Source: Podospora anserina
Taxonomy: Eukaryota
Length of the DNA stretch: 64,000 nt
NCBI GenBank assembly: GCA_017654855.1
Contig: CM030332.1
Coordinates: forward strand, 496,001 to 560,000
Direction: 5' to 3'
Position 1 is the first letter of the stretch, and every line of letters starts with the position of its first letter. Positions 2,104 through 9,797 of the stretch are shown here, one piece after another. Both the position numbers and the translations under genes were made by a program. Below the pieces are notes generated by a model. That model worked only from the letters and a program-made list of their open reading frames with translations. It was not told the DNA's origin and ran no database searches.

Positions 2104-5100
2104 CTAAAAGATGGAAATCTCCTCTTCCTGTTCATTGTGTGTAATCCAATCTCCCGGGAGAGACCCAACTCCCACTCTCTCGTATATTCTTCTCCCACCA
2201 CTGTCCGTCCATCCACCAATTCCAACCACCACGAGGACATGGTGCTCAAGGGCCCTGGCAGGCTTATTGCTCTTCGACTTTCGCCTCCCAACAGCCACAA
2301 CTCTCAATTCCTTGGCGTCATCTATCCCGGTAGGTCGCTGCCCAGCATCCCATTTGATCTTCTTCTCAACAACTTTCAACCCTACCACCAGTCTTCGACC
2401 CTTCCCGCTGAGGTTGTTGTCTTGATCTGTGCGCCCGGTATGCCACATGGAACTAGCAGTACTATTCCCTGACCCGCTGGTATCAAGACTCATTTCCCAA
2501 ACCGCAGCTCCCCACGGCGACCGAACGTCATCCTCCAGCCAATGAACTCCCTCGAACGGCAAATCCATGAAACCAATCGCACCCGTGTAAGCCATCCACG
2601 ACCAGCTAGGTGGCACCCTATACCGTCCCAGCCCTTCCTTGGGGAACTCGATCCTCCGCATACCCCCTGGTTCCTCGCAGGTCCAAAGCAAACTCCTCCC
2701 AAAAAAAGGGACTCTGTCAAAGATCCCATACCCCCCTCTCGTGTCGAAAGCGGCCACGAGCCTCTGCTCCAAGCCAGCGATGGCAATAGGGCGGTCGTAT
2801 GCTCTCGTGAATTGCAGTCGGGAATAGGTCTTGTAAAGGGATTCGTACAGGCGGATCTTGCCCCCTTTGCTCGAGGTCAGGGCTACTTGCGGGAAGTTGG
2901 GGTCGCCGAGAAAAGAGGATTGGTTACTTTTAAACAAGAAAGGTTAGTTAGTGTAACAAAGGAAACAATCAAGAGATCCAAGGACGTGCTTTGTCATCTT
3001 TGTAAGTGTTTCACAGCGCACCCCAGCACCGCACTCAAAATATGTCTGTCGTTCGGTGAAATAGATCGTTCGGCGCGCAAGAGCTCTTTCTTGTAGCACC
3101 CAACCACGTTGGTTGAGAGGACCATCGATGACATCTGTCTGGAAGTTGTCAATTGCCTCGCAGACATAGACCATGGCGTTGTTGTCTTCGCTGTCTCCAA
3201 CGTCGCCCTTGCCACTGTTAGCAGACAGATTGAGGGCAACAGACTTTCTTTGTGGGCGTGAAGACAAGAATCCGCTCGAAGTGCCACTGGCACTGCTGGC
3301 CGCAATCACACAATAGGCCAAACTGAACACTGTCTCCATCTTCTGAGCTTCAGTCTCAAAGTCACCCTGTGGGCCTTGAACGATACAGAGAGAGTCAATC
3401 CACAGGTACCGGATCCCAAGAGCTCTGGTCACGGAAACTGCGTCCTTGAACGTCTTAGGAAGGCTACTAATAGCTATCCCGGATGTAAGCCTGGGGCTGA
3501 CGTTGGTGGCGGTGGTGGAGAAATGGTTGTTATGGCGAGAGTCTCCCCACGGGTGTGATAGTGCGATGTACCGTGTGTCTTCTCCTTTGAGACCTAGCGA
3601 AGTTGAGGAACACAGTAAAATTGATTGCTGGCTTGCAGAGCTCCCGACATCGAGAAGTTTGGTAGGGAGAGCCAAACCCTTGTTCGACGGGATTGCTTTG
3701 AGGTAGCAGTCTGGGTGGTTGAGATCGCAATCGTTCAGCCAGTTGGCAAGAAGGGTGAAGTATGCGTCACTGTATGTTGACATCAGGGCTGGCAGTCCGA
3801 TTTGAATCTCGTCAGCTGCGTGCCTGAAACTGGGCGGCGCTCGCAACGGGTACTTTGCTATCAGCCTGTTAGTCAGTGAACTGAAGGAGTATTGCATCTA
3901 GCTAGCATTATTCTTGACTTACTCGGAACAAGACAAAGTGACAGAAAAGGATCAGGCATACGATCCAAAAAAAGATGAGAGCCGATTCTTTGTAATTTTA
4001 CCAAGTCAGTGTCACCTTTGGGCGTTGTTCCTGACTTGGTGATACAAGCATCGAAAACAAGCATGTGTAGCTCGCAATTACGGGACGTCGATTTGATAGT
4101 CGCAAAGCTATCTTGGCAAGGCTCCGGGGAAAGCAGATCTCGACTCGTGCACATTGGGCAAAGTCTCTGGATTGAGTTTGCAGGAAGTGGGTTTGATGCC
4201 AATGACCGGATACAGCGTTGGCGCAAGGCGAATTCATTGTCGACTGGATAGCTCCAAGTCGTAACTAACTGTGATTTGTTAAGCCATGTGCTGAGCCGTG
4301 AAGGGAGCAACTCAGGAGGTTGATCTTACAGGCTACATGAAGCTATCAGCGCTCATCTCCTCCGGCAGAGGCAGTAGCTGGATAAGCCAAAAAAAAAAGG
4401 AAAAAGAAAAAAAAAACTTACGATCTGGCACAGTTGACAGGCCGATGGGTCAATTTAAAGCAGAAATCGCTAGCTTTCTTACAGAATCACTCACATGCTA
4501 CAAATAAGTTCACAGTCAGATACCCGAGACGATTTAGAAATTAGTGTCCAAGGAACATACCGTCTACCCGTTCGAGCCGTGATCCTCGAGGTCAGTGAAA
4601 TCCATGAATCTGCAGATACAAAGGCGACTCACATACTGATGGTCGTCAGCTCTCGACTCTTCTCAACAGTCTTGGTTCTTTTGTATCATGAACCTACTGT
4701 CTAAATGTGTTCAGCGGAGTGAATGATGTGTCAGTTGGTCATCTTCCCAGAGTCATATCGATACTGATACGGTTCACGTACCTCCTAAAGTCCCATCAGC
4801 GGAGTTCTTCATTACAGGACAACCGGGATATCATACAAGATTCGGCTGTGTTTTGGGAAGCTCATCCCCTAGTCGGCTTTTTGCTGCTGTTCTCTTGGGC
4901 TTCATTACTTGGAGGGGTGCTGGTGGTGCAATGTTTGCTCGGTCTTTCCTAAAGCAAAGGTAATCGCCTCCCTGAGACTCATCATGTATGGCCTTTCCCC
5001 AAATAGCTTCCAACTTTTCCTTCAGCTCGCCAGCATCAGCTCGGCATCTGCTAATCTGGCTAGGCACCATGTTTTCACTGGGTAACTCAACAACAAGAAG

Positions 5101-6873
5101 TCTGTCCCTAACAAGTCGAACGATATCTGCGAGTGCCGAACCACCGGCCCGGTTGCATTCTGGATCATTCAAAATCTCAGCGATCCAATGACTCGCAATG
5201 TCACTCACTCGGGCAACATTTCGGTCCACTGTGAAGTAAAGGGTGTCTGTGTGCGGGTTCTCGCGGATTTTATGTTGGTCATAGAAGCTCGCCAACCCAT
5301 CGTTCCCGTACAAAATGATGATGACGAATTCGAGAATAACGCAACCGATAGACCAGATATCGAAGCGGCGTGACCTTGGGAGATGTAGATTGGCGACAGC
5401 TTCGGGAGCCTCGTAATGAGATGTCGTGAATTTCTGGTTTGTCATGTCCTTTCTTCGAGCGGTGGCAAAGACGTGCTGCTTGGCCAGGCCAAGGTCGGCA
5501 ATTTTCAACGTTCCCAGCCAACGGGAATCGTTGGTCTGTGACTGGTTGAACTGTAAAATATTCTCTGGCTTCAGATCGCCATGTCGCCAATGTTCATCGC
5601 TGCTTGCATCGCTCTCCTCGCTCACATAAGATCGGTTAGGGTCTTCGCTTCTAAAAGAAACTTCGTCGTCTGATGGTTCAACGAATCGAACGTGAATCTC
5701 GGGTACATTTCTCGGGGACTTGGATGTATCGGGGGTTGTGATGGGGCTGTAATCTTTTGTTTCCCCCTCTCGCGGTTTGACCGAATGCGGAACAGGTACG
5801 GTCAATCTTTCACCAGCTGCCATACCTGCCAGATCTGCTGCCCGTCGGACCACGTTGCCAGTCTTGGTCCTGTTGTTTGTGCCGTGGAGGGTTGAAAGGG
5901 CACTGACTATGCCGAGAACCTCTTCAATGACTGACATGATTCGATCAGGGTCAAGGTCTTTCGGCTCTGGGCCTTGGTTTTCCCAGAGCTCTCGAAGACT
6001 GCCTCCGTCTGCCCACTCAAACATGATGTAGTGCTCCGGACCACATCGCAAGGCGGCTAATGGGCGGATGAGATGTTTATGATGCAGCTTGTTTATCTCT
6101 TCCAAGGCAGAGGTCTCGTGGTTCCAAGCCGTTTCCACATTGTATCCAGGTTCCGAAGTTAGTGGTTTCAGCTGTTTCAATGCAACCTTGAGCGACTTTC
6201 CGAAGTATCTGTCGTCTTGGTGATGGGCATGGTGAATTTCTGCCTCGTAGACCGTACTGAAATGGCCAATATGAGGCTTCTGGGCTTTCCAGGTGATTGG
6301 GAGCACACATCCTTCCTTCAGCTCGTATGTGAACTTGTCTTTCAGAATAACAGGTGCTGTGAACATTGCTTGGTCCTGAAAGAATCGAAACGATATGTGC
6401 GCCCAGAGTTTGTCATGAAATACGTCCCATGCCTGGTGGTGGGCAACGCGTTGATGGCATGGTAACTTTCCCCCGACGCAGGGTATACGGTCCACCGGGA
6501 GGTGTTCGTCTGTCATGCTGTGTTTCCGGCAACTCTCCATGATAGCCAACAGGTCATTTGGAGAAGCCTCATTGCCAACCACTAGAATAAGAAACAGTGT
6601 CTTTCCGTGACCGCAAACAAAATCAATCACATCAGTCGAAGCCTTTTCTGGAAGCACCAGCCGAATGGTTGCATAGTTGACCAATTTATCGATTTCTGTG
6701 ACTGGGAGGAATTCCTTGCCGCTAGGAAGGGCGCTGGTGACAAAAGACTGTACTAGCCTTCTCCGGAGACTCCTAAGTTCTTCCTCTGGATTGGGCCTCA
6801 CCACAGCGGGTTCCTGGTAAGTTTCAGGGGGAGGTTTTCGACGACGACCAAAGAAGCGCCGCATGGTACCCAT
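2104..6873 (-). CDS. Ser/Thr protein kinase-HET domain fusion protein (~1364 aa, 11 exons incl. seven 3-nt micro-exons)
   Basis: Exons 6873-4837, 4784-4782, 4700-4698, 4635-4633, 4563-4561, 4497-4495, 4424-4422, 4332-4330, 4268-3923, 3857-2990, 2926-2104 all join in frame. Kinase motifs VALK, HGDLKPEN, IADLGL, YEAPE, DIWSIG. HET motifs LPTKLLDV, YIALSHPWG, LPKTFKDAV, YLWIDSLCIVQ, PLNQRGWVLQERALARR, PPSWSWMAY. An upstream in-frame ATG at 6918 is an alternative start. Confidence 0.85.
4269..4836 (-). other. Ladder of 8 phase-0 introns and 7 single-codon micro-exons (GAG ACA TAT ACG CAT ATC CCT = ETYTHIP)
   Basis: On the minus strand, YAG-NNN-GT(A/G) recurs seven times: ttag GAG gtacgt, ttag ACA gtaggt, tcag TAT gtgagt, gtag ACG gtatgt, gtag CAT gtgagt, ccag ATC gtaagt, gtag CCT gtaaga. 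Introns are 52, 81, 62, 69, 63, 70, 89 and 61 nt, with CTGA/TTGAC/TTAAC branch-like motifs. Confidence 0.88.
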
Positions 6874-7987
6874 GTTACAATAACAGAAGGACAGACGGTG
6901 TTTTTGTCGTAAAGACATCTCAACATCCAGAAAGTTTTGCTGCGAGTTGTCGTTGAAATATAGAGTCCCTCGAGGTGCGGGGTATAACCTTCTTGGCCAT
7001 CTTATCTGCTCCTAGGTCAGCAATCGTGACTTGCATATGGCTTGCTTTCTGTGGTTCTAGGGCTGATGAGTGGTTGGGTCTCGGTGATGAGGGGTTCAGC
7101 TTTTCCCCTCTCGTTGGCGCAAGTCCGTATCTGTCCCTGCATCGTGGGCATGCTGTTCGTCAATAATCAGTCAAGCGGGATGAGGAGTCAAAAGTGCAGT
7201 TCTCATGCAGCATAGGTGACCAGCGAGGACGAGGGGAAATGTGATGGATTGCAACAACGCGCATTCGATATGGCGCGGTGCAGTTGGTTGATGACACCCC
7301 GATCTGCCAGCCAGCTGCAATCAGGTGAAAACCTGGGGGAGGGGTCAGCCTTTTGGGTTCCCTCCCGTCCTGATTCCATCATTCCAACCAAAAAGGATTC
7401 CTTATCTCTGAATTCTTGATCGGCCAGAAAGGACGTACCTTATCCCGGGTTTTCATCGCATTCATCCCGTCACGGGGACAAAAAGAGTGTTGCCTAGCTA
7501 GACTAAGTCTCCGATTGCGCTTGGATGCCTTTAGACTTACCGGATCCTGAAGAAATGTCCCGATTCCTGTCCATGGCTCATTCAGGCTATGCCCAATGCC
7601 GACATGCGACTTGCACTGCGTGTTGGTCCCGGGCCCGATTCCTGGTGACCAATAGAGGGCCTCTCACACACCACCTCTTCTCTTCACACACCCTTAGCAC
7701 TTGTTTTACGACTTCGGCACCCCCCAGGCGTCCCTCAGGCATCTCCAAGGCATCCTCCACACCCTTTGAGCGAATATCGAGTCATCCAATATGGTCCGCA
7801 TGGTCCGCCATCATGAAGGGTATGTAGCCTCGTCTTGAGTCTTAAACTGGAAAAGTCCCAGATAAAACTTGCATCAATCAATTCCCTTCGCTTCTGCACT
7901 TTCGTTTACATGCGCTGAATTGCTGCCCCTGGTGCTTTAGCTTGAAGACCCGCCTGTCCGCATTTGCCAAGATCGTCCCAGGGCACC

Positions 7988-9797
7988 ATGTCAGGGCCTC
8001 TTTATAAGTCGCTGAAAGGCAGCCTTATCACGTCAAGCCTTGGCGAACTCCAGTTTCTACCGCGGAGCGTTGTGGAAGCAAAGGTTACCATTGAGAAAAT
8101 CACCCCACATCTCAGTTTTGGATCACGACTTTACACTCTGGTCTCCGAAGATAGCCTGGCCCGTCAGATTCATCAACAGGCAAGGAGAGTGTTTGCTATT
8201 CTTGTCCTTATCGGCAAGCCATCAGCAATCCAGACCTTATTCACGAAGGACGGCCTTATCGATAATCATCTCCCTCTTGAGGTTGTCAAAAATGGAGAGC
8301 ATGATACCATCGTCTCTTCAACCACTCAGAAAACGTTTCCGGCGTTCGACAACTGGGGAGATCCGGCTGCCGTCGACAGCTTTCTCGAGAAGCAATACCT
8401 TGTTCTGGCACCAGTGTTTCACACAGCTGGCCAGGCCCTGAAGTTGAACCGCAGTCATCCCCTACCCTTCGAGGAATGCACATGGAAGGCGAGCGGGAGT
8501 GACGGCGTATCGGTCTATCATGGCAGACTTCATCCTTCCCACCAGTTGCCTCCTTTCACGGTAAGAAGTTCGTTTTGCGGCCCTGTCGCTCTCCTGTACT
8601 AATTGCAAATATTTAATGTAGGCCACCTCGTACGACAGGATCGCTATCAAAGAAATCCCAGACAAGAAAGCCTTCGACCGGGAAAAGGAGAACCTCGACA
8701 GAATCCAATCCTTACACCACAAGCATCTGATACGTCTTCTCGGAAGCTGCGAGAAAGGTTCCGTAAATTACTTCTTCTTCCCTTGGGCAGCTGGTGGTAA
8801 TCTGAGGGACCTTTGGCACCTCCAAGGGGATGGCTCACGCACGAGCTTGTGGACACCGCAGACCATTGCATGGGCTCTCGATCAAATGCTTGGTCTCGTG
8901 GATGCCATCAGAATCCTCCACGACAATGGAATCCGCCATGGGGACATCAAACCCCAGAATATCCTTCACTTTCCTGAAGCCACCCAAGGATCCGGTAAAA
9001 TTGGAGGTAGACTTGTCCTTGCGGATGTCGGAGTGTCCAAGTTTCACCACGAGGCGACGGCACTCAGAAACGAGGCCACAAACACTCGAGATGCGACCAT
9101 ATCTTACGAAGCCCCTGAGGCCACCTCCGAGTTCAGAAACGGAAAACCAAGGCCTCGTCGCTATGACATGTGGTCACTGGGCTGCATGTTTTTGGAGTTT
9201 GTGGTCTGGCTTCAATACGAATTCGAGGCCGTCGAGATGTTTCGCAAACAGCGGATGCCGCGACGAGGAGACCCCAGGACAGCTCCTGGAAACTTCTTCA
9301 CACAGTCCACCACCGACGATGGCCCGGCGACTATTCATTCCAAAGTGACTGATGCAATCGGGCTTCTGCGAGATGACCCTCGCTGCTGCAGTGACGGGGA
9401 CAGCACTACCGCTGTGGAGGATCTCATTACCTTGATTGAGCGAGATCTTTTGCAGATAGATCCTGAAAAGCGCGCCAAAGCACCTGCACTACACAAGAAC
9501 CTCAACCGGATTGTGCAACGGGCGCACCGGGACCCTCAGTACCTCTGCCGACTTGTCAACCCTTCCCCCGAGATTCCCAGGTTCTTCCAAAGGAGTAAGC
9601 GGAGAGATAGCAAAGGAAGTACTAGAAAGCTCTCTTTGTCATCCTCCTCGTCTGTCAGCAGTTATTCGGGCTCTTCATTTACGCCAACCGACACAGGGAG
9701 AAGTCGACGGTCATCGGTTTCATCGGTCTCCAATGTTGGACGAATGTCAAAAATGTCTTTAGGTGACGAGGCCGCGGTGATTGAGGAGGAATCATGA
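7988..9797 (+). CDS. Ser/Thr protein kinase (~582 aa), paralogous to the kinase part of the neighbouring kinase-HET gene, Ser-rich C-tail
   Basis: Exons 7988-8560 and 8622-9797 (intron gtaaga...actaat...tag) join in frame. Motifs IAIK, HHKHLIRLL, FPWAAGGNLRDLW, HGDIKPQN, LADVG, YEAPE, DMWSLG. Confidence 0.9.

Follow-up and report, generated by a model that had tools for sequence, protein, structure and literature searches.

Seven consecutive single-codon exons between the kinase and HET parts of one Podospora anserina gene: a candidate splicing bottleneck

Exons of only a few nucleotides (nt) are known from fungi and plants. In Coprinopsis cinerea, 27 exons of 3 nt were reported in 26 genes (PMC12230235), the 1-nt exon of Fusarium CYP621A was called unprecedented for fungi (PMC12940212), and plants possess the 1-nt exons of APC11 and VPS55 as well as a rice pair of adjacent micro-exons of 5 and 12 nt (PMC8831610). 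Such ultra-short exons (1-3 nt) are internal, lie between canonical introns, often fall within conserved motifs and are missed by annotation, so that gene models break. The same features are found at the locus described here, which lies in a 64,000-nucleotide stretch of Podospora anserina DNA (GenBank assembly GCA_017654855.1, contig CM030332.1, positions 496,001 to 560,000; hereafter the window). On the minus strand of the window a 726-codon frame that encodes a protein kinase domain runs to 4837, and HET-domain frames follow further downstream. The 568 nt at 4836-4269, which lie precisely where the kinase module meets the HET module, parse into eight complete GT-AG introns with seven 3-nt exons in between. 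We refer to this arrangement as the ladder.

A further point of comparison is offered by the plant TIR-NLR genes RPS4, tobacco N and RCT1, whose retained-intron isoforms shift on infection and are needed for resistance (PMC4100160). Like these, the ladder gene would encode a protein of immunity or cell death whose effector domain is TIR-related and which retained introns truncate, and in the plants the ratio of isoforms matters. HET domains reportedly suffice to trigger cell death (PMC10197012) and are regarded as remotely TIR-like (PMC10197012, PMC12881547). Therefore, a restraint of the kinase-HET protein, which by analogy is potentially toxic, is plausible.

One kinase-HET gene read across eight introns

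The splicing of the ladder was judged from assembled contigs of sequencing runs. Fifteen runs of about 17-29 million letters contain 0.84-0.87 of the sampled words, and six runs of 31-36 million letters contain all of them. One run from each of three studies (X1, X2 and X3) was taken from the group of fifteen and classed as RNA-type solely by its spliced joints; the DNA run X16 belongs to the group of six. Gaps in contig cover and depth differences between parts were left out of the evidence. In X16 the stretch is covered in one piece with zero joints. In all three RNA-type runs there is a joint 4633>4268 with 12 extra letters, which on the minus strand read ACG CAT ATC CCT, that is, micro-exons 4-7 in order, and in all three GAG and ACA are joined to 4837. 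The joint given as 4702>4836, whose ends are non-canonical, arises from the aligner displacing the GAG exon once introns 1 and 2 are gone: the letters placed at 4701, 4702 and 4836 are identical to those at 4782-4784. Intron 2 alone is out in one X2 contig (4700>4782, which skips 81 nt) and intron 5 alone in one X1 contig (4497>4561, which skips 63 nt); record 14 of X3 leads from the kinase exon through GAG, ACA, TAT, ACG and CAT, with introns 1-5 out, and then runs into intron 6. Every one of the eight introns is thus seen removed in one contig or more with its borders as predicted, those of introns 7 and 8 being deduced from the letters ATC and CCT together with canonical sites. All seven 3-nt exons are internal exons of at most 15 nt in mature RNA, which makes them micro-exons. 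The eight ladder introns exist and are used.

The introns are 52-89 nt long and the spacers measure exactly 3 nt each, in the order GAG, ACA, TAT, ACG, CAT, ATC, CCT (individual lengths and donors are given in Table 1). The donors follow the fungal-type consensus GTRNGH, a branch-like site resembling CTRAY or TTAAC lies 9-30 nt from the end of all eight introns, and every acceptor is TAG or CAG (YAG), so that donor, branch site and acceptor of all eight are those of U2-type GT-AG introns. All are in phase 0, and five of the eight lengths are not divisible by three and would shift the frame if the intron were kept. The earlier note, made from the letters alone, had placed these eight introns and their first phase-0 stops, and every one of them is confirmed in the sequence: GTA TGA in intron 1, ..AAC TGA in intron 2, GTA GGT TCA TGA in intron 3, the acceptor TAG itself in intron 4, which is open up to that point, and ..TTC TAA, ..AAT TGA, ..AGA TGA and ..TCC TGA in introns 5 to 8. 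The AND logic that it proposed holds as well: keeping any one ladder intron ends the open reading frame (ORF) at 695-722 amino acids (aa), upstream of the HET part, and all eight introns must go. ORFs, Pfam domains and RNA-type contigs likewise agree with its placing of the ladder exactly at the kinase/HET boundary. Its product sizes of about 680 and 1364 aa fit the truncated forms and the complete one.

The joined exons would give an mRNA of 4.36 kb. It contains a single ORF, of 1379 aa when counted from the first ATG and of 1364 aa when counted from the second Met cluster, in which ..TQPNL is followed by E-T-Y-T-H-I-P, by LVTTWSYPVDNEFA.. and, further on, by the HET domain. Record 13 of X3 physically connects the HET exons, the micro-exons and the kinase exon, and both this contig and record 5 of X1 bridge the kinase and HET parts. 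The frame from kinase to HET is continuous only via the seven micro-exon codons, and the HET frame has no ATG upstream of its conserved N-terminal element. The kinase and HET models are one transcription unit with one reading frame.

This architecture is shared by the relatives. Among homologues of at least 1193 aa that are related to the kinase part, 85 of 93 carry both Pkinase and HET, and the fused proteins span Sordariales, Hypocreales, Xylariales, Dothideomycetes and Leotiomycetes; therefore the fusion is the normal architecture of the family. None of these long proteins is a Podospora-like (more than 54% identical) fused ORF. The nearest proteins, at 97% identity, are from Podospora species, and the public models are split in Podospora as well as in Cercophora and Triangularia (68-78% identity for the latter two), with kinase-only models of about 670-711 aa and HET-only models of 625-663 aa. 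For the window itself, the public kinase model of 695 aa is read into intron 1 and ends there with a Val-stop, and the HET model of 640 aa is PODANS_1_1400 of Podospora anserina S mat+.

The seven micro-exon codons encode ETYTHIP (Glu-Thr-Tyr-Thr-His-Ile-Pro), one residue per exon, and directly precede a conserved L-x-x-x-W-x-[FY]-P-V-D-N-x-F-A element. When 30 fused homologues are aligned, the junction reads ..NL / L-D-x-T-W-x-F-P-V-D-N-x-F-A, and the window protein fits it with ..NL, a short Tyr motif and L-[DE]-x-x-W-x-F-x-V-D-N-x-F-A. When the N-terminal HET element was located by a hidden Markov model (HMM), Y-[STA]-[HL] was found within 10 residues upstream of it in 15 of 109 homologues, compared with 0.3% of random 11-residue windows of the same proteins. 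Examples are D-Y-T-L-P-P before L-E-D-W in Xylariales and Pleosporales, D-T-Y-T-H-A in Venturia, T-Q-Y-T-H-T in Diplodia, and T-Y-S-H-A-P and T-Y-A-H-E-P in two Logan ORFs. T-Y-T-H-I-P of the window protein is this family motif. As the micro-exons encode a conserved motif, the fully spliced product is the ancestral protein and not one with an incidental linker. Several Sordariales models have odd short inserts at the junction (TTH-P, T, P, TY..P, ETHAR), which would be the expected output of gene callers that meet a ladder. An AlphaFold2 model of the homologue P0081, built on a 60-sequence alignment, has a mean predicted local distance difference test score (pLDDT) of 79; its motif residues 554-559 form a low-confidence hinge (pLDDT below 50 at 554-558) that follows the helix closing the kinase module and precedes L-K-D-W-Q-F-P-V-D-N, which is well ordered. 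On this model the micro-exon motif resembles a short linear motif placed in a flexible hinge.

The ladder itself is far above chance. A chain of eight signal-bearing introns spaced by 3 nt is unique in the 64-kb window, with no second ladder on either strand and a next longest chain of 2, and in 40 block-shuffled windows the longest chain was 1 (10 shuffles) or 2 (30 shuffles). Three candidate descriptions of it were rejected. An introner-like or tandem-duplication origin was dismissed because the introns are unlike each other (the best local score of any pair among the eight is 20, within the shuffled range with its 99th percentile of 19 and maximum of 22) and the ladder has no tandem repeat except the A/T run of intron 7. 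A stwintron does not apply, as the introns are serial, the signals of each are intact and 3 nt stay between introns in the RNA; nor does recursive (ratchet-point) splicing, as each AG is separated from the following GT by 3 nt that remain in the RNA.

Table 1. Exons and introns of the kinase-HET gene in window coordinates.
Feature	Position	Strand	Evidence and remarks
Exon 1, coding: N-terminal region and kinase domain (about 6267-5316), ends ..TQPNL	4837..6918	-	ORF; Pfam Pkinase E=1.6e-20; contigs 4836-7094/7173/7295; first ATG 6918
Ladder intron 1	4785..4836	-	52 nt, GTATGA, stop at +4..+6, branch-like GCTGAT; out in X1, X2, X3, kept in one X2 contig
Micro-exon 1, GAG (Glu)	4782..4784	-	Letters in spliced contigs; used in P. 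pseudoanserina and P. comata models ending PNLE..
Ladder intron 2	4701..4781	-	81 nt, GTACGT; X2 joint 4700>4782 with CT..AC on + strand
Micro-exon 2, ACA (Thr)	4698..4700	-	Contigs of X1, X2, X3
Ladder intron 3	4636..4697	-	62 nt, GTAGGT; kept: X1 record 5, X2 record 9, X3 record 13; out: X3 record 14 only
Micro-exon 3, TAT (Tyr)	4633..4635	-	RNA-type contigs; joined to both neighbours in X3 record 14
Ladder intron 4	4564..4632	-	69 nt, GTGAGT; out in joints 4268>4633, 4498>4633; kept in X1 records 3 and 4
Micro-exon 4, ACG (Thr)	4561..4563	-	Among 12 letters between 4633 and 4268 in X1, X2, X3
Ladder intron 5	4498..4560	-	63 nt, GTATGT; X1 joint 4497>4561 with CT..AC; kept in X1 record 3
Micro-exon 5, CAT (His)	4495..4497	-	RNA-type contig letters
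Ladder intron 6	4425..4494	-	70 nt, GTGAGT, weak branch-like GTCAAC/ATTGAC; out in joint 4268>4633 (3 runs); kept in X1 record 2, X2 record 8, X3 record 14
Micro-exon 6, ATC (Ile)	4422..4424	-	RNA-type contig letters
Ladder intron 7	4333..4421	-	89 nt, GTAAGT, long U-rich run 4389-4416; out in joint 4268>4633 (3 runs)
Micro-exon 7, CCT (Pro)	4330..4332	-	In 12 letters of 3 runs; absent from one X1 contig, where GAT alone stands between 4495 and 4268
Ladder intron 8	4269..4329	-	61 nt, GTAAGA, branch-like CTTAAC; out in joints ending at 4268
Exon 9: conserved N-terminal HET-module element (LVTTWSYPVDNEFA.., CxxC)	3923..4268	-	RNA-type contigs, ORF, alignment, HMM
Intron 9	3858..3922	-	65 nt, GT-AG, phase 1; joint 3857>3923 in 3 RNA-type runs, none in DNA run
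Exon 10 with HET domain (about 3570-3088)	2990..3857	-	Pfam PF06985 E=6e-30; contigs
Intron 10	2927..2989	-	63 nt, GC-AG, donor GCACGT, end AAAAG; joint 2926>2990, CT..GC on + strand, 3 RNA-type runs
Exon 11, coding: C-terminal region and stop codon	2104..2926	-	ORF, contigs; contigs extend to about 2062

Intron 10, the last of the gene, is a true GC-AG intron. In the translation of the kinase part VALK, HGDLKPEN, DLG and YEAPE can be recognised by eye; the domain thus has H-G-D for H-R-D and D-L-G for D-F-G, and about 100 residues are inserted ahead of its catalytic loop. We take the HGD motif to be of the non-RD type, which is presumably linked to immune kinases. A divergent neighbour at 7946-9797 on the plus strand is a paralogous kinase, 33-37% identical to the kinase part (residues 262-356 and 441-680), which lacks both a HET part and a ladder within the window; the two genes have about 1 kb of upstream region in common.

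Partly spliced messages and their traces in relatives

The contigs show that splicing of the ladder is incomplete. Introns 1 and 2 are out and intron 3 is in, both in record 5 of X1 and in record 13 of X3, two long contigs, and the latter also lacks introns 4-8, which leaves intron 3 as the only one retained next to seven removed. X2 keeps intron 3 in a short separate contig over 4633-4702 (record 9), so that its retention is found in contigs of all three RNA-type runs; its removal is found only in record 14 of X3, a contig that keeps intron 6. Other retentions concern intron 1 (X2), introns 4 and 5 (X1) and intron 6 (X1, X2 and X3). The retention of intron 7 is not judgeable because the X1 contigs seem to be cut at 4389-4416, where the U-rich run of this intron appears as a run of 28 A on the plus strand. 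With intron 3 retained, the ORF ends ..PNLETVGS after 699 aa and is kinase-only. Partly spliced kinase-only messages, as anticipated in the earlier note, are present in three studies, and intron 3, rather than all eight introns equally, appears to be the main block to full splicing. Weak hairpins span the donor and the branch site of intron 3, but they do not reach significance.

In one X1 contig the ATC exon is joined directly to 4268 and the CCT (Pro) exon is skipped in frame. As all ladder introns are in phase 0, leaving out any subset of the micro-exons keeps the frame intact.

The intron-3 form has left independent traces in a Logan protein (P0180, 5 contigs), which ends ETVGS, and in the Podospora comata model, which ends ETVGP; in four other Podospora models the GAG exon is used and intron 2 is then read through. 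Further away, 10 of 15 kinase-only ORFs of relatives (39-78% identity; among P0095-P0105 and P0125) end with a Val-stop at donor 1, including five metagenome ORFs at 44-49% identity. A Val-stop at this place means an unusual, non-consensus GTN-stop donor, as GTATGA is here. This suggests that the GTN-stop donor is conserved in the relatives, and perhaps a clean kinase-only C-terminus has been selected. A Logan contig of another species, 4086 nt long, holds a 674-aa kinase ORF and a 652-aa HET ORF and is broken at the same junction. It leaves at most about 100 nt besides the two ORFs and is therefore largely spliced RNA in which the frame is still broken.

What the ladder may do

With splice sites 3 nt apart, adjacent introns would probably not be recognised simultaneously, and neighbouring introns would therefore probably be spliced one after another. 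The yield of full-length kinase-HET mRNA would then be the product of eight efficiencies, and eight multiplied efficiencies would make the ladder a leaky bottleneck that acts constitutively. The default product would be kinase-only or a target of decay, and the potentially lethal kinase-HET protein would be kept scarce. We give this reading, one gene with the ladder as a constitutive leaky bottleneck limiting kinase-HET, a probability of about one half. That the ladder is a de facto bottleneck or gate is supported by the data; that it is a regulated safety catch we infer.

Several observations weigh against such a bottleneck. None of the X1-X3 contigs has all eight introns removed, and for this reason the full-length mRNA is deduced from overlapping pieces; the lack of an all-spliced contig, like that of a Podospora-like fused ORF among the long proteins, is weak evidence, since contigs drop rare variants. 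Ratios of isoforms are not derivable from contigs, the seeming dominance of the intron-3 form depends on the paths taken by the assembler, and the contigs with retained introns could be plain unspliced precursor. The mean word depth of the HET-part contig (2062-4268) is higher than that of the kinase contig (4836-7094) in all three runs (55.8 vs 40.3, 77.5 vs 25.7 and 31.9 vs 16.1), which could reflect a separate HET-only transcript or mere 3' bias. The junctions of relatives were compared through protein models, so that conservation of the ladder is judged at the protein level. RNA structure of the eight introns stays within shuffles (z from -1.1 to +1.2). The in-frame stops, which the earlier note listed with the caveat that most introns contain stops anyway, carry no information: a phase-0 stop in all eight introns arises in 12% of 5000 shuffles of the intron interiors, and we rejected the stops as a signal. 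The origin of introns between every codon of a conserved motif is an evolutionary puzzle.

The main rival is that the ladder is a neutral relic with ordinary slow splicing. It would have arisen by accidental intron gain or be an old complex intron, difficult to lose in either case, and the retained forms would be slow sequential intermediates and noise with no selected effect on dosage. Such a relic agrees with intron retention being the commonest splicing variation in fungi (PMC9801653), with stops at chance level, with introns that have neither special structure nor mutual similarity, and with contigs that are not quantitative. It does not readily account for the Val-stop at donor 1 in 10 of the 15 relatives' kinase-only ORFs, which needs a non-consensus donor, for intron 3 being kept in three studies with its neighbours out in the long contigs (all seven of them in record 13 of X3), or for the break at the same junction in the compact Logan contig of another species. 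On this balance we regard the relic as somewhat unlikely. One would also argue, from the split public models of Podospora, Cercophora and Triangularia and from the deeper HET-part contigs, that there are two separate genes of 695 aa (kinase) and 640 aa (HET), that the 568 nt between them are untranslated or intergenic and that the splicing is spurious. However, the bridging contigs (record 13 of X3 and record 5 of X1), the frame that is continuous only via seven codons, the fusion in 85 of 93 long homologues, the match of the micro-exon peptide to the family motif and the HET frame without an ATG upstream of its N-terminal element speak against two genes. The two-gene annotation is contradicted, and we give it hardly any credence.

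Two further explanations are less likely than the relic. The ladder could be a signal-regulated switch, in which transcripts with detained introns are completed upon incompatibility, microbial attack or stress and release kinase-HET, the output being ultrasensitive to splicing capacity via the eight efficiencies. The nearly finished long contigs of X1 and X3 that keep intron 3 (seven of eight out in record 13 of X3) are in line with this, the abundance of the intron-3 form despite its premature stop and many downstream junctions would fit nuclear detention, and the plant genes RPS4, N and RCT1 provide a precedent (PMC4100160). However, the runs are coded and entered the analysis as contigs only, the all-spliced contig is absent from three runs, and no fungal precedent was found in the accessible portions of the literature searched; we thus consider the switch improbable. 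It could even be that the ladder is an evolved, conserved and ultrasensitive splicing gate, with introns fixed between every codon of the hinge motif, the lethal kinase-HET output set by eight efficiencies, and transcripts parked as the intron-3-detained kinase-only form and finished on a signal of danger or incompatibility or on a change in spliceosome capacity. If true, this gene family would use RNA processing itself as a sensor of and safety catch for cell death. We hold this version for more doubtful still. The in-frame skipping of the CCT exon in one X1 contig and the schistosome micro-exon genes (MEGs) with their symmetric exons of 3-81 bp (PMC10526429) bring to mind another function, a diversifier of linker length which by skipping subsets of micro-exons would produce up to 128 kinase-HET linkers. 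This is very unlikely, as complete micro-exons 4-7 are the form seen in all three runs and the conserved motif speaks for the inclusion of all codons.

The ladder among known systems

For annotation, these findings mean that a single kinase-HET gene has been entered as two adjacent models in a classic model fungus and its relatives; in other species, too, this junction is where many split or oddly joined models break. Seven consecutive single-codon exons probe how small an exon can be and how closely splice sites can be spaced under intron definition, and the ladder would imply an enforced order of intron removal. A HET effector behind a multiplicative splicing bottleneck, with kinase-only as the default, would offer a directly testable model of how a HET/TIR-like death domain is restrained post-transcriptionally. 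An array of consecutive 3-nt exons is not described in the accessible portions of the literature searched (locus names, 3-nt exons, consecutive fungal micro-exons and stwintrons); the supplementary tables of the Podospora anserina re-annotation (PMC9801653), which lay outside that search, may list events at these loci.

In its domain order, its length (about 1200-1350 aa in the others) and its junction motif, the ladder gene resembles the kinase-HET fusions of Pezizomycotina, which are annotated as 'related to tol protein' or 'serine threonine kinase'. In contrast to them, the public models of Podospora anserina and the nearest genera are split into kinase-only and HET-only. Recursive splicing and the stwintrons of Pezizomycotina have in common with the ladder that a stretch of several intron lengths is removed in consecutive reactions whose order is probably imposed. 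However, recursive sites leave nothing in the mRNA and a stwintron is an intron within the splice signal of another, whereas the ladder introns have complete signals of their own and leave 3 nt per step. The schistosome MEGs share with the ladder the runs of symmetric exons in multiples of three, whose skipping is neutral to the frame. In contrast, their exons of 3-81 bp lie between long introns, make up the whole gene and encode secreted variable proteins; the ladder is a 21-nt hinge with minimal introns in an intracellular protein of 1379 aa. In the plant TIR-NLR genes one or two normal introns lie between large exons and truncation keeps the TIR domain, whereas here a chain of eight introns is involved and truncation loses the HET effector. 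Finally, the ultra-short micro-exons described in the literature searched stand singly or at most two adjacent, in contrast to the ladder, where seven follow each other and each codon of a seven-residue motif is a separate exon.

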